64,000 bases of DNA, from assembly GCA_046302855.1 (NCBI GenBank), contig JBKCHH010000005.1, forward strand, positions 26-64,025, read 5' to 3'. Of the stretch, positions 1 to 57,826 are shown in pieces. Each line of letters starts with the position of its first letter. The stretch's first letter is position 1. The notes beneath the pieces are model-generated. The model made no database searches. It saw only the letters and a program-made list of their open reading frames with translations, and was not told the DNA's origin. A program made the position numbers and the translations under genes. Origin of the DNA: Alphaproteobacteria bacterium. Lineage in GTDB: Bacteria > Pseudomonadota > Alphaproteobacteria > Rickettsiales > UBA8987.

Positions 1-124
1 CCAACTTAAAAATCCATCGCGGACTATCAAAAACCAGAAAGAAAAACGCTATAAAATTCTTCCTAAAAAACTTCAAAAAAAAACCAAAATAGCACCACAC
101 TTATTTAATTATGCCAAGTTTTTC

Positions 125-3564: not shown

Positions 3565-5490
3565 TCAGTAGCTTGTTATAAAATCCAAAAAAATTTTTTT
3601 AGGAACATTTAAAATATCAATATCGGCAATGTTTTGTGGCTTATCATAACCAACATAAACGCCAACTACAACATCTGAATTGTAACCTATATACCAGCTA
3701 TCAAAATTTTCTCTTGTGATACCGTTTATGCCAACATATTGAATTTCATTAATTGCATCCTCAAAGTTTTTATTTAGATTTTCAATTTTGTTAGTTTCAA
3801 AAAGCTGGTCTTTTTTTATGATGGTTTTATACACAGTTTCGCCTTCGTTATCCTGCACAAAATTTATTGAGGTGAGGGGAATTTTTACGCCACTATTAGC
3901 AAAAACTAAAAATGCCTCAACAATATTTAGCAAACTTTCTTCGCTAGATTTAATTACTTTTGAATCATCTAAAAGTTCTTTTGTTAACAGCAAAAAGGGA
4001 TTAATTAAAGTGCCAAGTTTTCGCTTAGATAAGGCCCTGTTAAATTGGCTTTGCTGATAGTTAAAGCCACCAATAAGGGAAAGAATTTCCCCTGTTTTTG
4101 CATTTGCCACAATCATCGCCCCATTAATTATAGGAATCTGCACTGGCGTATAGGCCTTATTATTTTTCTGCACTAGAATTATATCGCCTAAAGATAGAAC
4201 CTCTTGAATGGGTTTGAGTGAAGATTGCTTTTCGCCATTTTCATCTATTACATAGTTTGTTTTATAGGCTCTTTTCATCCAATCAAATTCGTTTAAAGGG
4301 ATAACGGCAACCTTACCAGTGCTAAGACCAATTATTATCTCATTATTTTTTGCATCGATTCGCAAAATGGCGGCAATTTCCACATCGTCATTATATTTTA
4401 AACTGTTTAGGTGAGAAAATTTGTTTTTTAGCTCACTTTCCCACTCCACAAAATCATCCACCTTGCCAATTTTGCCTAAAAAACCAAATGATTTAGAATA
4501 GCTTACCAAGTTATCTTGAAAGGTTTTTAGGGCAAGTTTATGAGTTTTTTCATCTAGGGTAGAAAAAATACTTAAGGCGCCAGATTCTATTTTATTTTCA
4601 TCTAACTTGGTTCGTAATTCTTTTAAAAGAGCGTCTCTAAAATACTGCTTATCTGCAATTAGGGGAGACTTCTGCATATTGTTTTTTATCACCACCTTTT
4701 CATTTATGGCGTTGATGAATTCAGCATCTGAAATTAGATGATTTTCACGCATCATGTGCAAAATTATATTGCGTCTGTTAATGGCATTATCGTAATTTCT
4801 AATGGGGTTGAACTTTGATGGAGCCTTAGGAATGCCAGCCAGCAGGGCTATTTCTGCAATGGTTAAATCTTCTAGTTTCTTATCAAAATATTTTTTGGCA
4901 CTGCTTACCACGCCATAAGAGTTTGAGCCTAAAAAAGTATTATTCAAATAAATTTCTAAGATTTTTTCTTTAGAAAAACTTTGATTAATGCGGTTGGCAA
5001 GAATTGCCTCCTTTATTTTTCTCTCAAAGGTTTTATCTTGCGATAGAAAAATGTTTTTAGCAATCTGTTGCGTTATGGTAGAGCCACCCTGCAGGCTTCC
5101 TGTATCTAACTCTAGGGAGAGCTTTAGATTGTTAAAAATTGCCCGCAAGATGCCCTTAAAATCTAGCCCGCCATGTTCATAAAAGTTTCTATCTTCAGCT
5201 ATTAAAAAGGCATTTTGGATTGCTTTGGGGATATATTCTAGTGGCACAAAGGCTCGGTTATCCCGCCCAAAATCGTCAATTAGATTATAATTAGAGGTGT
5301 AGATTTTAGAAATTTTTTGCGGTTGCAGGGAATATAATATTCTGTGGTCTGGAATTTCACTATTAAAATAGGCAATAAGCACAATTATCGTGCTAATTAA
5401 CAGCAGTGCCAATAGCAAAAACACAGAGAAAATGCCTTTTAACAGACGGAATTTCGGGCGGTATTTATTGTTATTCTTTCTTTTAGGCAT
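3565..5490 (-). CDS. class A PBP-like protein: intact GT51 transglycosylase domain, degenerate transpeptidase domain
   Basis: 641 aa with an N-terminal TM anchor. GT51 motifs EDRNFYEHGG, GGSTITQQIAKN and RKIKEA are present. At the expected SxxK position it reads LGTLINPF, and the KTG-equivalent reads GINGIT. Confidence 0.8.
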   Translation of the reverse strand: MPKRKNNNKYRPKFRLLKGIFSVFLLLALLLISTIIVLIAYFNSEIPDHRILYSLQPQKISKIYTSNYNLIDDFGRDNRAFVPLEYIPKAIQNAFLIAEDRNFYEHGGLDFKGILRAIFNNLKLSLELDTGSLQGGSTITQQIAKNIFLSQDKTFERKIKEAILANRINQSFSKEKILEIYLNNTFLGSNSYGVVSSAKKYFDKKLEDLTIAEIALLAGIPKAPSKFNPIRNYDNAINRRNIILHMMRENHLISDAEFINAINEKVVIKNNMQKSPLIADKQYFRDALLKELRTKLDENKIESGALSIFSTLDEKTHKLALKTFQDNLVSYSKSFGFLGKIGKVDDFVEWESELKNKFSHLNSLKYNDDVEIAAILRIDAKNNEIIIGLSTGKVAVIPLNEFDWMKRAYKTNYVIDENGEKQSSLKPIQEVLSLGDIILVQKNNKAYTPVQIPIINGAMIVANAKTGEILSLIGGFNYQQSQFNRALSKRKLGTLINPFLLLTKELLDDSKVIKSSEESLLNIVEAFLVFANSGVKIPLTSINFVQDNEGETVYKTIIKKDQLFETNKIENLNKNFEDAINEIQYVGINGITRENFDSWYIGYNSDVVVGVYVGYDKPQNIADIDILNVPKKIFLDFITSY

Positions 5491-6957: not shown

Positions 6958-7096
6958 GTTATTGCGAGGAGTCAAAATTTATTTTTGGCGACAAAGCAAT
7001 CCATAAGCAAGGTAGAGTTTAGTTTTCAGAAATAGTTATTGCAAGAAAAACCATTTTTGTGGATTGCCACGCTCGCTAAAGCTCGCTCGCAATGAC
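6958..7096. repeat. palindromic MITE/RPE-like element, type A
   Basis: Termini gttattgcgagg...ctcgcaatgac. Core caatccataagcaaggtagag...tgtggattgccac is shared with the copies at 15954, 17539, 23706 and 56906. Confidence 0.8.
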
Positions 7097-7102
7097 GATA
7101 TG

Positions 7103-15536: not shown

Positions 15537-15779
15537 CTAAAAATTAGGGTTGTTATTGTAGCAGGACGTTAATGAGAAGGTGCGCCTGCCTCCGAAGAGG
15601 GCGGTGTGTAAATTACTTCGGAAAGCTAACATAGCCTTCTTTATAATTTCGTGTTTCTGCTCATCGGGAAAGCTACCGATTGGGTCAATACGCCCATTGA
15701 CGACCACTTCGGTGACATACCAATTTCCATCACTCACATTCCGACTTATCTCAAGGGTGACTTTAACTTTTTCGTGCAT
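15537..15779 (-). CDS. hypothetical 80 aa protein inside unit A (coding status uncertain)
   Basis: AAGGAG lies 9 nt upstream of the ATG. The N-terminal 55 aa look protein-like (KVKVTLEISRNVSDGNWYVTEVVVNGRIDPIGSFPDEQKHEIIKKAML). The C-terminal third runs through stem-loop sequence. No family recognised. Confidence 0.35.
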   Translation of the reverse strand: MHEKVKVTLEISRNVSDGNWYVTEVVVNGRIDPIGSFPDEQKHEIIKKAMLAFRSNLHTALFGGRRTFSLTSCYNNNPNF

Positions 15780-15845
15780 GATGCTGTTCTCCTTAGCTAG
15801 TGGAAGGAATTAATCAAAAGGGACACCTGCCTCCGAAGGTGTAAA

Positions 15846-15950
15846 AATGGAACAATAGCAGTTTAACAGAGAGAGAGAGATAGAGTTTTCAATATAAAAT
15901 ATTGATTTCAGATAAGATTTTTTTGAAGTTTTAACCAAATTTTAACACTC
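15846..15950 (-). promoter_or_regulatory. conserved upstream module, copy A (paralogous to 45269..45365)
   Basis: Aligns with copy B. TTAA-N7-TTAAC (15931..15946), TTGAAA (15887..15892), (GA)n tract 15868..15880, TGCTATTGT extended -10-like (15852..15860). Confidence 0.5.
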
Positions 15951-15953
15951 TCT

Positions 15954-16084
15954 GTCATTGCGAGCGAGAGCTTTGCTTAGAAAGCGTGGCAATCCACAAA
16001 AATGGTTTTTCTTGAAAAAAACGACTGAAATCTAAGCTCTGCCTTGTTTATGGATTGCCTTGTCGCTTCGCTCCTCGCAATGAC
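15954..16084. repeat. palindromic MITE/RPE-like element, type A (inverted relative to 17539 copy)
   Basis: gtcattgcgagcgag...cctcgcaatgac termini. The core is the reverse complement of the 17539..17667 copy. Confidence 0.85.
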
Positions 16085-16140
16085 GACAAAAATAATAACG
16101 CCTAAAACTTTATAAAAAATTAATAATGCAGTAGTCTTTA

Positions 16141-16258
16141 ATTGCTATTGAATCGAAGTAAAAAACAATCCATAAACAAGATAGAACTTGGGCGTAAGGT
16201 ATTTTTTCAAGAAAAAACATTGTTGTGGATTGCTTCACCAAAAATGGCTCGCAATAAC
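16141..16258. repeat. degenerate type A palindromic element
   Basis: attgctattgaatcgaag...caatccataaacaagatagaacttgg...tgtggattgcttc...ctcgcaataac. Decayed termini. Confidence 0.6.
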
Positions 16259-16274
16259 CTGATAATAGCAGCTA

Positions 16275-17538: not shown

Positions 17539-17667
17539 GTCATTGCGAGGAGCGAAGCGACAAAGCAATCCACAAACAAGGCAGAGCTTGGATTTCAGAT
17601 GCTTTTTGCAAGAAAAACCTTTGTTGTGGATTGCCACACTTCGAGCAAAGCTCTCGCTCGCAATGAC
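17539..17667. repeat. palindromic MITE/RPE-like element, type A (best-preserved copy)
   Basis: gtcattgcgaggagcgaagcgacaaagcaatccacaaacaaggcagagcttgg...ttgttgtggattgccacacttcgagcaaagctctcgctcgcaatgac. Lies in the convergent gap between the HPP gene and frr. Confidence 0.9.
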
Positions 17668-21073: not shown

Positions 21074-21290
21074 GTCATGAGCCGAGGGAGTCTCGCTGAA
21101 GCGATAGCGGAAGCAGACGACGCGGCAATCCAGACTAGCCTTCACCGTCATTGCGAGAAGTCTCGCTGAAGCGATAGCGGAAGCAGACGACGCGGCAATC
21201 CAGTTTATAAATACAATATTTTAGAATTTCTTTTTGAACTTTATTTACTGGATTGCTTCTGCACGAGCCTTGCTCTGCTAAGCTCATGAC
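21074..21290. repeat. composite type B palindromic element with tandemly duplicated left arm
   Basis: Left arm ...agtctcgctgaagcgatagcggaagcagacgacgcggcaatccag occurs twice (21074..21133 and 21147..21203). Outer termini are gtcatgagc / gctcatgac. Core ctggattgc. Confidence 0.8.
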
Positions 21291-23705: not shown

Positions 23706-23834
23706 GTCATTGCGATGAGCTTTAGCGAAGAAGCAATCCATAAACAAGGTAGAGCTTGGGTATCAGATATTTTTTCAAGAAAAACCATTTTTGTGGATTG
23801 CCACACTTCGAGCAAAGCTCTCGTTCGCAATGAC
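23706..23834. repeat. palindromic MITE/RPE-like element, type A
   Basis: gtcattgcgatgag...caatccataaacaaggtagagcttgg...gtggattgccacacttcgagcaaagctctcgttcgcaatgac. Confidence 0.9.
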
Positions 23835-42673: not shown

Positions 42674-42693
42674 GAACCCCTAACCATTGTAAA

Positions 42694-42815
42694 GTCGCCA
42701 TTGCGAGGAGCTTTCTCAAAAAAGCGACGCGGCAATCCAGTAAATAAAATTCAAAAAATATACCAAAAATATTGTATTTATAAACTGGATTGCTTGCGTG
42801 CCGCCTCGCAATGAC
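42694..42815. repeat. palindromic element, type B
   Basis: gtcgccattgcgagg...gcgacgcggcaatccag...ctggattgcttgcgtgccgcctcgcaatgac. Lies in the convergent htrA/miaA gap. Confidence 0.85.
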
Positions 42816-42843
42816 GCGGTTTTGCCCAAAAATAAATCTTCGC

Positions 42844-43722: not shown

Positions 43723-44634
43723 ATGCAGGTATTAACAGCAGTATCTAACCCACATCTTACTAAACTAGATGGCACACAAATCAACCATATTACTGATATT
43801 ATTAAGAAAAATGATGGAAAAATACTAGATATCGATGCCTTAAAACAGCTAGAAGCCTTTGAGATAAGTTTTTCTACCCTCAACCCCGCCTCAGTAGATA
43901 AGATTTTTATAGAGATGGAGAAATTTAAGCAACTAAACCTAATAGACTTTGCCATTCAAGAAAAAACTGATGATAGGAAAAAAAAGCTCCTTCTTGCCGA
44001 TATGGATTCTACCATAATAGAGCAGGAATGTTTGGATGAAATGGCACTGCTAGCTGGCATAAAAGATAAAATCCAGCTAATTACCGAAAAGGCAATGCGG
44101 GGCGAAATTAACTTTGAAAATGCTTTAATTGAGAGAATAAACTATCTAACTGATGTTCCTGTAAAAATAATGGAGCAGGTCTATGAGAAAATAAAAATAA
44201 GGGCAGGTGCCAAAAGTTTGGTAAATACTATGAAGGTAAATGGCGCTAGAACAATTTTAATTTCTGGCGGCTTTACCTTTTTTACCGAAAAAATTGCTAA
44301 TGCCGTTGGTTTTGATATTCAAAAGGCAAATGTGCTAGAGGAATCAAACGGCATGTTTACCGGCAAGGTAAGAATGCCAATTTTAGGGCCAAATGCAAAG
44401 CTGGAATGTTTAAAAATAAACGCCAAAGAGCTTGGAATTTCTATCAAGCAAGCAATAGCCGTGGGTGATGGGGCAAATGACTTGGGCATAATTCAAAATG
44501 CTGGTATTGGGGTTGCATTTAAAGCCAAGCCTATAATCCGCAACGCCACTAAATTTAGAATTGATTATTGTGATTTAACTGCTTTACTATACTTTCAAGG
44601 TTATAATAGCTACGAGATTCACTATATAAATTAA
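43723..44634 (+). CDS. serB: phosphoserine phosphatase
   Basis: 303 aa. HAD motifs LLLADMDSTIIEQE, ILISGGFTFF, AVGDGANDL. Confidence 0.85.
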   Translation: MQVLTAVSNPHLTKLDGTQINHITDIIKKNDGKILDIDALKQLEAFEISFSTLNPASVDKIFIEMEKFKQLNLIDFAIQEKTDDRKKKLLLADMDSTIIEQECLDEMALLAGIKDKIQLITEKAMRGEINFENALIERINYLTDVPVKIMEQVYEKIKIRAGAKSLVNTMKVNGARTILISGGFTFFTEKIANAVGFDIQKANVLEESNGMFTGKVRMPILGPNAKLECLKINAKELGISIKQAIAVGDGANDLGIIQNAGIGVAFKAKPIIRNATKFRIDYCDLTALLYFQGYNSYEIHYIN

Positions 44635-44694
44635 CTATTTATTAATCTCTATTGTTATATATACAGAAATTAACTAAATGCTTCAGGTAGTGCC

Positions 44695-44970
44695 ATGCTA
44701 TATCTTTCTAGAAAAATAGGGGAAACGATTATAATAAATGATAATATTGAAGTTACCGTTATTGATGTAAGCGGTAAAACCGTAAAGCTGGGCTTTGTTT
44801 ACCCAAATACTGCCAGCGTTTTACGCAAAGAAATTCACGAAAGAATAAAGGCAGAAAATGAATCTGCCAAACTTTCTAACAATAGTGATGAAAATATTCA
44901 AGAAATTCAAAAGGCGTTCAAAACCCTAACCCTACGCCGTAAACAACAGCAAGAAGAAGAAAATAAGTAG
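44695..44970 (+). CDS. csrA: carbon storage regulator CsrA with extended C-terminus
   Basis: 91 aa. MLYLSRKIGETIIINDNIEVTVIDVSGKTVKLGF...VLRKEIHERI, followed by about 35 extra residues. Confidence 0.85.
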   Translation: MLYLSRKIGETIIINDNIEVTVIDVSGKTVKLGFVYPNTASVLRKEIHERIKAENESAKLSNNSDENIQEIQKAFKTLTLRRKQQQEEENK

Positions 44971-44996
44971 GCTGAAAGATTTTTAAAAGTGAGGTT

Positions 44997-45268
44997 AAAA
45001 GACCCCCAGCGGTTGCTGGGGGGGGTAGTGGGGGTGAGCTAGGCTTTCTTGCCTAACTCATCAAGATGTGATAGAGAACGGCAGGGGGAAGCGAAGCGTT
45101 ATGGCCGTCCCTTGTTTTAGGACGGTATACGACCCCCGTTCTGTTCTCATACACCCGGGAGAAGCACTGGCTTCTGTCAAATCCTCAATCAATTGACTGA
45201 GGATTCTTGCGTCGCAGGTGAAGTGCGCTTGTAGGACTTGTAGGCGACCCATTGTGGGACTCCGTAAA
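44997..45268 (-). ncRNA. G+C-rich transcription unit B: candidate structured RNA of unknown class
   Basis: G+C well above flanks. Extended -10-like TGCTATTGT (45276..45284, minus) upstream and a terminator at 45003..45022. Hairpins aatcctca-N10-tgaggatt and ccgtcc-N9-ggacgg, long-range gagaac...ggggg / ccccc...gttctc pairing, tandem cctacaag x2. The only ORF (63-97 aa) has no family-like features. Confidence 0.4.
45003..45022 (-). terminator. terminator hairpin of unit B (possibly bidirectional with csrA)
   Basis: cccccagc-ggtt-gctggggg. On the minus strand it is followed by tctttt. Lies 33 nt after the csrA stop. Confidence 0.6.
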
Positions 45269-45365
45269 AAGGTGGACAATAGCATTTTAGTAGAGAGAGA
45301 GTTGTCAATACAAAATACTGATATTTTAAAAGAAAGTTTTAGGTTTTTAACCAAATTTTAATATA
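45269..45365 (-). promoter_or_regulatory. conserved upstream module, copy B (paralogous to 15846..15950)
   Basis: TTAA-N7-TTAA (45347..45361), TTGACA (45303..45308), (GA)5 tract 45292..45301, TGCTATTGT (45276..45284). Similarity continues into the first ~15 transcribed nt (CCAYYTTTTTAC). Confidence 0.5.
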
Positions 45366-45480
45366 TGATTCAAGTGGTAACAAAGGGGCTTGGCATATTT
45401 TTATTGCTAATAATTACATCTTCTAATATAGAACCCATACTTTTAAACTTAAGTTTATTTCTATAGTTTACCTATTCTAC

Positions 45481-45497
45481 GGGGTAGAGCAGTCTGG
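45481..45497 (+). repeat. duplicated 5' fragment of tRNA-fMet
   Basis: 17/17 nt identity (ggggtagagcagtctgg) with positions 4-20 of the tRNA at 45579. Followed by a perfect 12-bp hairpin tataagtttttt/aaaaaacttata. Confidence 0.7.
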
Positions 45498-45578
45498 CCT
45501 TATAAGTTTTTTCCTTTAAAAAACTTATATAAATTAAATTTGCTACCAGACTTTTATCTCCCTCGTGTTATTACCCGT

Positions 45579-45655
<77 letters not shown>

Positions 45656-45732
45656 ATCTAAAAGTATAATTAAAAAAATGCGGCGCGTTTTAAGAATTTT
45701 TTAAGTTTGATTTTCTACCAACCCTTAAATCT

Positions 45733-49808: not shown

Positions 49809-50012
49809 TTATGGGGAGCGAATACTAGGTGTAAAACCATAAACGGTAGCTCATTTAAAACAAGCACAATGGTTCTATTTCAATTCAACAGAGCCGAATT
49901 TCATATATTAGACTTCTTTCGTAACTATAAGTATCTCCCCTGTTTATTGCATTGATTTTAAAAGACTTTTTGAATAATTTTTACTTAATAATTTTTTGAA
50001 GAAAAATTATAT

Positions 50013-50080
50013 GCCCGCCCCTAATTTGCTGAAGGCAAATAGGGGCAGTGGGGGCGGGCACTTCTCAAAGGTTTTTTTTT
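50013..50080. terminator. long G+C-rich imperfect hairpin with flanking T-runs at left border of the island
   Basis: gcccgcccctaatttgc-tgaag-gcaaatagggg-(cagtg)-ggggcgggc. A T9 run lies 12 nt downstream on plus, and there is T-rich sequence on minus. The strand served is unclear. Confidence 0.35.
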
Positions 50081-50116
50081 AAGAAATAGCTTAGGTTATG
50101 AAAGAAGTCTATTACT

Positions 50117-50160
50117 CCAGTCCGCCTTCGCCAAGGCTTCGGCGAGACACTCGCTTTTGC
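50117..50160. repeat. fragment of a palindromic-element arm
   Basis: Reverse complement gcgagtgtctcgccgaagccttggcgaaggcggac closely matches the right arm of the 56906..57056 copy. No terminal inverted repeat is retained. Confidence 0.6.
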
Positions 50161-50228
50161 AACTCCGCACCAAAGGTGCGGGCAAAATCGGTGGTGGCGC
50201 AAGAAACTAACTCAGCTACTCATGCTGT

Positions 50229-50258
50229 GTATTTTTCCCTGAGAACAGGGAAAAATAC
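50229..50258. repeat. perfect 13-bp inverted repeat
   Basis: gtatttttccctg-agaa-cagggaaaaatac, followed by a third half-site cagggaaaatt. About 150 nt downstream of the CocE/NonD gene. Confidence 0.7.
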
Positions 50259-50404
50259 AGGGAAAATTCAAATTATAGCATCATGTTTTAGTATAGTTCT
50301 TAACAAAACAAAAATAACTACAATTTAACCTCTAGTCTATATAGCCAACATCTTAGTTTTTAAGTTCGTTTAATTTTTTATACCATTCCCAAGGGCGCTT
50401 GCCG

Positions 50405-56905: not shown

Positions 56906-57056
56906 GTCATTGCTATTGACGCGAAGCGACAAAGCAATTGTCCAAAAACAAGGCAGAGCTTGGATAACAGACAAGTTTTTGCAAGAAACGCCTTTGTTGT
57001 GGATTGCCGCGTCGTCCGCCTACGCTAAGGCTTCGGCGAGACTTCCTCGCAATGAC
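56906..57056. repeat. palindromic element, type A core with type B-like extended right arm
   Basis: gtcattgctattgacgcgaagcgacaaagcaat...ggcagagcttgg...gtggattgccgcgtcgtccgcctacgctaaggcttcggcgagacttcctcgcaatgac. Confidence 0.85.
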
Positions 57057-57073
57057 GAATATCGGAACAAAAC

Positions 57074-57826
57074 CTAAAAAGGTGTAATTATATCAATAAC
57101 TTGGTTGCCAATTCTTGGTTGCTGAACATCTGAAATTAAGCCCCTACCACCGTAAGAGATTCTAGCCTCGGCTATTCTTTCCGCATCTACCGTATTTTGC
57201 GGAGTTATGTCATCTGGGCGAACCACCCCCTCTACTGTTAACTGCCTAATTTCGTTATTCACCCTAATTTCTTGTGAGCCATATATTACCAAATTGCCAT
57301 TATTAGTTACTTGGGTTACAACCGCTGCCACCTTAGTTTCAATCTTTTCTTGCCTACCAATTGAGCCTTCCCCCTTATTATCTAGGTTAGAGCTTTTGGA
57401 TAACAAATTAGAAGGGTCTGGCGTGCCGGGTAGATTTTTTATCAACAGATTATTTTCTGCACCAAATAGTTTTGGAATGCCAAGTTTATCAGATTCCTCC
57501 CTTGTTCTTTCTGTTTTATTGTTCAAATCTGCCTTATCTGAAATGGCAACATTTACGGTTAGAATATCGCCCGCATTTTTGGCTCTTTTATCGGCAAAAA
57601 ATTGCCTTGCCCCATCACTCCACAGGGAATTTTTCTTTATGTTTGCCTTATTATCTTGCTTGGCGGTGCTTGGCCACTTAATTGGCACGGAGGATTGCTT
57701 TTCATCTGGAATTTTAGATTCGCTCATCGGCGGAGCCTTGCCCACCCATTTTAGCCTATCTACCTGCGAAGATACGCATCCAGATAAAGATAAAGCTAGT
57801 AATATTGTTGCGGTAATAATTTTCAT
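57074..57826 (-). CDS. flgH: flagellar L-ring lipoprotein FlgH
   Basis: 250 aa. Lipobox LSLSGCVS. DKRAKNAGDILTVNV...NGNLVIYGSQEIRVNNEIRQLTVEGVVRPDDI. Confidence 0.9.
   Translation of the reverse strand: MKIITATILLALSLSGCVSSQVDRLKWVGKAPPMSESKIPDEKQSSVPIKWPSTAKQDNKANIKKNSLWSDGARQFFADKRAKNAGDILTVNVAISDKADLNNKTERTREESDKLGIPKLFGAENNLLIKNLPGTPDPSNLLSKSSNLDNKGEGSIGRQEKIETKVAAVVTQVTNNGNLVIYGSQEIRVNNEIRQLTVEGVVRPDDITPQNTVDAERIAEARISYGGRGLISDVQQPRIGNQVIDIITPF

Follow-up and report, generated by a model that had tools for sequence, protein, structure and literature searches.

A G+C-rich, strain-variable minus-strand unit between csrA and tRNA-fMet in an uncultured alphaproteobacterium

The locus and the question it raises

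What is carried by the G+C-rich stretch that separates csrA from the initiator tRNA gene in this A+T-rich genome: a structured RNA, a small protein gene, or a relic of some inserted element? The stretch, referred to here as unit B, has a G+C content of 0.50–0.55 against 0.373 for the window as a whole (by window we mean the entire 64-kb stretch of DNA that was analysed). The initial annotation had taken it for a candidate structured RNA read towards csrA, and all the motifs that it listed for the unit were recovered on the minus strand where it had placed them. The immediate surroundings are as follows.

44695..44970, plus strand: csrA, 91 aa (PF02599, 1.1e-19), convergent neighbour of unit B
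44995-45365, minus strand: unit B, G+C-rich, between csrA and tRNA-fMet
45579..45655, plus strand: tRNA-Met (CAT), initiator type with C1/A72, one of four tRNAs in the window (Rfam scan)

The Pfam domain of this CsrA covers residues 1–52 and is followed by a K/E/Q/N-rich C-terminus of ~39 residues. The same tail is present in the closest relatives (92 aa) and is absent from most CsrA matches (73–87 aa).

A promoter-like module and a terminator frame unit B

The upstream end of unit B is formed by a promoter-like module, M1, which ends in a short leader.

45264..45361, minus strand: module M1, promoter-like, ~98 nt, common to unit A (15841-15945)
45361-45347, minus strand: TTAAAATTTGGTTAA (TTAA-N7-TTAA), inside M1
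45350-45323, minus strand: TTAAAA-N16-TAAAAT, the sole consensus promoter match inside M1
45308-45303, minus strand: TTGACA, inside M1
45301-45292, minus strand: (CT)5, inside M1
45284-45276, minus strand: TGCTATTGT, inside M1
45275-45264, minus strand: CCACCTTTTTAC, leader, inside M1

That this module is shared by units A and B, as had been proposed, was confirmed over ~100 nt: the one other site in the window is that of unit A, where 70 nt (15876-15945) are 77% identical and another 26 nt are 88% identical, with an exact block of 17 nt. The two TTAA-N7-TTAA boxes (units A and B) belong to this one duplicated module and are not independent copies, and TTAA-N7-TTAAC occurs in the A+T-rich window at chance frequency (four matches against 3.0 expected), with no enrichment. 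The box extends over the −35 element of the TTAAAA-N16-TAAAAT site; the control by CtrA that this might suggest found no support in the analysis. TTGACA and TATTGT lie a non-standard 21 nt apart here, 19 nt apart in a second allele of the unit (allele 2, see below) and 29 nt apart in unit A, and therefore do not constitute one standard sigma-70 promoter. The length of the (CT)n tract between them, which alters their spacing, is itself variable, with five repeats here, four in allele 2 (about 3590-3600 of contig L002) and, in unit A (about 15860-15885 of the window), a greater length with interruptions; this could be slipped-strand variation.

In unit A the module is followed by a longer leader, an AAGGAG Shine–Dalgarno sequence (SD) and an 80-codon ORF (15537-15779) that is annotated by gene callers in other assemblies. 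The unit A sequence shows no folding excess (z = −0.4 to −0.7), the only homologue found for its ORF was the ORF itself, and its AF2 model (pLDDT 66) gave no match in a PDB fold search. Contigs of other strains stop 57–340 nt past fabF at the unit A locus, suggesting that this locus is also variable or bounded by repeats.

The downstream end of unit B consists of a C-rich tract and an intrinsic terminator.

44997..45035, minus strand: conserved 3' end, present in all three alleles with differing loops
45035-45023, minus strand: C-rich tract CACCCCCACTACC
45022-45003, minus strand: terminator hairpin CCCCCAGCAACCGCTGGGGG, followed by TCTTTT at 45002-44997

The hairpin begins 33 nt past the csrA stop codon (44970) and had been thought to terminate both transcripts. 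A terminator scan reported the site for the minus strand only, and on the plus-strand side the hairpin continues in G's rather than T's. As the T-run is found only on the minus strand, the hairpin is the terminator of unit B. To csrA it would offer no more than a hairpin that lacks a U-tail, and termination shared by the two transcripts found no support. A promoter-like module common to unit A and a terminator oriented for the minus strand agree with the initial view of unit B as a separate minus-strand unit, and the locus is best explained as a minus-strand unit transcribed independently of csrA, in a hot spot of strain variation between csrA and tRNA-fMet. Transcription of unit B and its start site are inferred.

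The body of unit B is exchanged between strains with identical CsrA

Seventeen metagenomic contigs carry the exact CsrA of the window, and the DNA of seven of these (L001-L007) was compared with it. All seven encode 100% identical CsrA and have flanks 95–100% identical to the window, and they fall into three alleles that differ in one segment.

45026..45254, minus strand: allele-specific body, with no similarity to allele 2 and with similarity to allele 3 ending at 45036

Allele 1 comprises the window, L001, L004 and L006, with a body that is 100% identical throughout. In allele 2 (L002 and L007) csrA, terminator, module and leader are kept at about 95% identity (the module, at L002 3561-3872, with (CT)4 and a changed −10-like box), and an unrelated sequence of about 210 nt takes the place of the 229 nt at window 45026-45254; alleles 1 and 2 cease to be homologous immediately past the ATG(G). 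Allele 3 (L003 and L005) keeps similarity to 45036 and then continues as a third sequence; it contains only a 22-codon frame, its upstream sequence is different and its contigs end in a copy of the motif that flanks tRNA-fMet on the 3' side. Copies of each allele are all identical in the data examined. On two further csrA contigs, covered through their gene tables only, gene callers place minus-strand genes (121 aa on one, at least 75 aa on the other) that end about 96–100 nt past the csrA stop, in the same place as the ORF of unit B. This suggests one or two alleles beyond the three that were sequenced, each with a minus-strand ORF.

Outside these strains nothing comparable was found. The next most similar CsrA proteins share 78% and 75% identity with that of the window, and on those csrA contigs of relatives that have sequence past csrA a same-strand gene follows, with no trace of unit B. 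No match to the module, to the leader or to either body was obtained in pattern scans of genome contigs, of metagenome contigs (scanned twice, the second time with a csrA 27-mer) or of viral contigs, and blastn against phages and plasmids returned nothing meaningful. No SerB relative above 51% identity was present in the GTDB representative genomes, which indicates that these include no close genome.

Since strains exchange the body, unit B can be neither a housekeeping RNA nor a conserved RNA of another kind. The idea of a conserved structured RNA is consequently not supported: the body is swapped for unrelated sequence among strains with identical CsrA and is absent beside csrA in the nearest relatives.

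The body is predicted to fold strongly and matches no known RNA family

Within the body the following elements were located.

45244-45228, minus strand: tandem CCTACAAG
45205-45180, minus strand: near-perfect 26-nt palindrome AATCCTCAGTCAATTGATTGAGGATT with 13-nt arms (92% complementary), forming a 12-13-bp hairpin centred on CAATTG
45148-45074, minus strand: long-range helix GAGAAC..GGGGG / CCCCC..GTTCTC, enclosing the CCGTCC/GGACGG hairpin
45125-45105, minus strand: CCGTCC/GGACGG hairpin
45036..45059, minus strand: 10-bp hairpin GAGTTAGGCA-AGAA-AGCCTAGCTC, directly past the ORF stop

The strong fold of unit B held up as a prediction. The putative transcript of 281 nt has a predicted energy of −102.5 kcal/mol (z = −5.27 against shuffled sequence), and the fold is stronger on the sense strand: the body of allele 1 without leader and terminator gave z = −4.86 in the sense and −3.97 in the antisense orientation. 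The values for allele 2 were −4.62 with leader and terminator, −3.70 for the body and −1.08 for the antisense body, and those for allele 3 were −3.53, −2.34 and −1.42, respectively, so that sense folds better than antisense in all three alleles. Thirty host coding segments of 224 nt, used as controls, had a mean z of −0.16 (sd 0.99, minimum −3.24), and the bodies of alleles 1 and 2 lie beyond all of them. The folding excess of unit B is thus real, and the architectures predicted for alleles 2 and 3 differ from that of allele 1.

These values raise the alternative of a strain-specific non-coding RNA, in which the leader and the 3' tract with its terminator would frame a multi-hairpin body and the ORF described below would be incidental; such an RNA would act, for example, as a regulatory sRNA or as a protein- or nucleic-acid-binding RNA. 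None of the 30 coding controls reaches z = −3.7, and pairing is predicted for the GGAG of the leader, some of it, in allele 1, with the C-rich tract that is conserved at the 3' end. A scan of the window with Rfam 15, the check that the initial annotation had called for, returned at gathering score the four tRNAs only (6S, tmRNA, RNase P and SRP RNA were not found) and assigned unit B to no known family. A permissive Rfam scan gave unit B no match at E ≤ 10, and the best match in 44800-45600 had 16 bits (E > 2); scans of alleles 2 and 3 gave no match, and ARAGORN found no tmRNA. The lack of an Rfam match for any allele counts against the non-coding alternative, as does the fact that the alleles share neither sequence nor an evident common architecture; taken with the evidence on the ORFs that follows, we consider it doubtful.

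A more specific version, in which unit B would be a CsrB/RsmZ-type decoy that sequesters the adjacent CsrA, is scarcely credible. Like CsrB, RsmZ and RsmY, unit B would be a structured RNA of several hairpins that lies next to csrA and ends in its own intrinsic terminator, and the SD-like ACGGAG could serve as a CsrA site. Unlike them it has exactly three GGA in 281 nt (positions 12, 91 and 165, two of them within predicted stems) instead of many loop-exposed ones, a number that the initial annotation had already thought too small for a decoy; allele 2 has six, which is about chance level. As the body is not conserved together with CsrA, varying among strains in which CsrA is identical and being absent in relatives, the decoy was rejected on both the GGA count and the absence of conservation.

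A small ORF opens at the conserved SD and start codon

The leader of unit B ends in a potential translation start, from which an ORF extends through most of the body.

45250..45263, minus strand: conserved leader end, GGAG (45263-45260), 7-nt spacer, ATG (45252-45250)
45061..45252, minus strand: 63-codon ORF plus stop, MGRLQVLQAHFTCDARILSQLIEDLTEASASPGCMRTERGSYTVLKQGTAITLRFPLPFSITS, with its ATG 7 nt past GGAG

The ORF ends 38 nt ahead of the terminator. It had been dismissed for want of family-like features; the dismissal overlooks the placing of the ATG 7 nt past the GGAG of a conserved leader. In allele 2 the corresponding AAGGAG-N5-ATG opens an unrelated frame of 64 codons (L002 3560-3366). 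A frame of 63 codons was open in 402 of 5000 dinucleotide shuffles of allele 1 (0.08) and one of 64 codons in 204 of 5000 shuffles of allele 2 (0.04), so that the chance of both frames jointly is about 0.003. This figure counts against a non-coding RNA, as do the ORFs called on the same strand in other alleles (121 aa in one, 75 aa or more in another), and the copy of the module at unit A likewise drives a called ORF.

The product itself is an orphan. The 63-aa sequence had no homologue among 5.8 billion clusters in a word-index search, and a full phmmer search against 1.84 billion representatives found no real homologue; its one match, a 3054-aa Calx-beta repeat adhesin weakly matched 16 times, was judged spurious. 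Searches of Pfam, PHROGs, PADLOC, NCBIfam and PDB sequences were all empty, and the AF2 model (pLDDT 51; a helix and three strands predicted) is uninformative. The products of alleles 1 and 2 show no similarity to each other (p = 0.37–0.79), and neither the 63- nor the 64-aa product has a hydrophobic stretch of membrane-spanning length. Codon-position G+C is flat in the 63-codon ORF (0.52/0.52/0.53 against 0.51/0.36/0.32 for host genes) and gene callers annotated the ORF on no contig, both of which count in favour of a non-coding RNA.

In the folds predicted for alleles 1 and 2 the first two G's of the SD are engaged in base pairs (unpaired probability ≤ 0.05). Their partners in allele 1 are in part the C-rich 3' tract, and in allele 2 they sit in a local 7-bp hairpin that has the AUG in its loop. 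Pairing of these G's together with fold z values beyond those of the controls fits an mRNA that is translationally masked.

The reading that we favour, tentatively, is that unit B is a strain-specific mRNA for a small protein, with a strongly structured fold that masks the SD, at a recombination hot spot beside tRNA-fMet. An accessory cassette peculiar to the strain is the most economical account. The fixed frame consists of the ~100-nt promoter module, the short GGAG/ATG leader and the C-rich tract with the intrinsic terminator, and the payload of a G+C-rich body of ~220 nt that is exchanged wholly between conspecific strains. The payload of this strain would be the 63-codon ORF, starting at the conserved SD and ATG and contained in a stable multi-hairpin fold, and base-pairing of the SD in that fold would restrain translation through mRNA structure. 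The anatomy of the unit, the exchange of its body, the ORFs, their lack of homologues and the folding excess are shown, and translation and any function of the product are inferred. Several observations argue for such an mRNA: a fixed frame around unrelated bodies, a conserved SD and ATG that open 63 and 64 codons, ORFs called in other alleles and behind the module of unit A, and a promoter-like site and an oriented terminator both on the minus strand. Others argue against it, namely the flat codon-position G+C, the lack of a gene call or a homologue and the pLDDT of 51, as well as the unrelated products of alleles 1 and 2 and the short frame (22 codons only) in allele 3. Folding excesses as large as this one are, moreover, commoner in non-coding RNAs than in mRNAs.

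Type I toxin mRNAs (hok/Sok, AapA1/IsoA1) offer the closest parallel in layout, with a transcript of ~270 nt that has its own promoter and terminator, a stable fold and a small SD-led ORF, unannotated and strain-variable, whose SD is predicted to be paired. They differ in that neither of the peptides predicted for unit B (63 and 64 aa) contains a hydrophobic or membrane-spanning segment, and in that there is no sequence relative. A consensus scan of 44600-45700, which is a weak test, showed no promoter-like site on the plus (antisense) strand.

If the small-mRNA reading is correct, orphan small genes are being swapped in an uncultured A+T-rich alphaproteobacterium within a fixed promoter/SD frame and terminator, and one of them gives a small mRNA with an unusually strong fold, missed by gene callers. 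For genome scans the case also illustrates that good folding does not by itself make a G+C-rich island of an A+T-rich genome a conserved RNA gene, and that it is strain comparison which separates the two. Unit B is confined to one species-level lineage and comes without a functional clue, which limits its wider importance for now; its sequences are orphans.

Unit B adjoins a variable region at tRNA-fMet

Accessory cargo genes accumulate at hot spots beside tRNA genes, and the small-mRNA reading would make unit B such a gene, coding for an orphan small protein, instead of placing it in a conserved family of structured RNAs. In the window a direct repeat is formed by the first 18 nt of tRNA-fMet (CGGGGTAGAGCAGTCTGG; 45480-45497 and 45581-45598), and the two copies bound a unit of ~101 nt with an A+T hairpin (TATAAGTTTTTT/AAAAAACTTATA). 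One such extra unit is found in the window, two in L001 (10240-10405) and at least three in L002 (3772-4204). This pattern suggests att-type repeats, or else a tandem duplication, at a hot spot of recombination. L002 also has a 1.15-kb insert (4300-5440) that lies between tRNA-fMet and fabG and encodes two products on the minus strand, one of 143 aa and one of 169 aa; the latter weakly matches the PADLOC candidate defence model PDC-M32A (E = 1.5e-5). The variable partial repeats of the tRNA 5' end and this two-gene insert speak for a hot-spot context. On the csrA side the junction reads GGGGTAG(A/T)G on the plus strand and resembles a tRNA 5' end, a weak hint that it is an old attachment core.

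Such features would also suit a non-functional remnant, in which the body would be foreign or mobile DNA left at a hot spot beside tRNA-fMet, whether by an integrative element since decayed or by an insertion rich in hairpins; its promoter and ORF features would then be due to chance or vestigial. The strain-variable number of ~101-nt units bounded by tRNA 5' repeats, the tRNA-like sequence exactly at the csrA-side junction and the recurrence of the tRNA 3'-flank motif in allele 3 and at window 92-112 are all in keeping with it, as are the foreign G+C content, the absence of the unit from relatives and the palindromic insertions by which other intergenic spacers of these strains also differ. 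A relic would not, however, be expected to retain a module, an SD with ATG and an oriented terminator within precise boundaries common to the alleles, nor is a fold of z = −4.9 expected of decaying DNA. Neither the 64-kb window nor the 35 loci examined, furthermore, contain a repeat copy of an allele body, and the body was not found in the phage, plasmid and viral collections. We therefore think a remnant unlikely.

Two groups of known elements bear on this choice. Morons and orphan small-ORF islets by tRNA genes resemble unit B in having a promoter, a small ORF and a terminator, a deviating G+C content and att-like partial repeats; around unit B, in contrast, the window contains no prophage, integrase or mobile-element gene, and the cassette measures only ~370 nt. 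REP/BIME sequences, Rickettsia palindromic elements and MITEs are likewise G+C-rich, hairpin-rich and strain-variable at gene 3' ends in an A+T-rich genome, and the window does carry a REP-like repeat family (CATTGCGAG...GCAATCC elements), to which the body of unit B is unrelated. That body differs from all of them in being single-copy in the data examined and in having a promoter, SD, ATG and terminator. The sole candidate for terminal inverted repeats is an A+T-rich inverted repeat of 28 nt (71% complementary, 44973-45000/45345-45372) that flanks the whole of unit B.

A bolder idea, for which we see only a slim chance, is that this is one site of a modular system, a cassette-exchange locus into whose fixed frame unrelated, highly structured G+C-rich bodies of about 200 nt (structured RNAs or toxin-like masked mRNAs) would be swapped under diversifying selection, with the promoter module also serving further sites such as unit A; it might be under cell-cycle control by CtrA and tied to recombination at tRNA-fMet.

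Other repeats in and around the locus

The motif ATAATTAAAnAAnTGnGGnGC begins 10 nt past tRNA-fMet (window 45666-45686, plus strand) and recurs at window 92-112 (minus strand), beside a G+C-rich, hairpin-rich stretch (113-253) downstream of hemC; these two matches in the window compare with 0.08 expected by chance. It is also found at the end of allele 3 (L003 7338-7358) and in L002 (4290-4310 and 4451-4472), where it recurs inside the insert. Over 24 nt, the leader immediately upstream of tRNA-fMet (45542-45565) shows 75% complementarity to the 5' acceptor/D-arm part of that tRNA (45579-45602). An apparent variable site inside hflK proved to be a scaffold gap of Ns.

A G+C-rich, hairpin-rich spacer between convergent genes at 50010-50260 contains GCCCGCCCC...GGGGCGGGC, repeats of the GCCAAGGCTTCGGCGAG type and a GTATTTTTCCCTG/CAGGGAAAAATAC hairpin. 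The dispersed palindromic family has the form CATTGCGAG...GCAATCCA(C/T)AA...TTGTGGATTGC...CTCGCAATG, with copies at 6984-7100, 15960-16270, 17553-17667, 21089-21203, 23721-23834, 42696-42830 and 56941-57080. One of these copies (42693-42843) is missing from L002 and L003, indicating that the elements are mobile or were recently gained.
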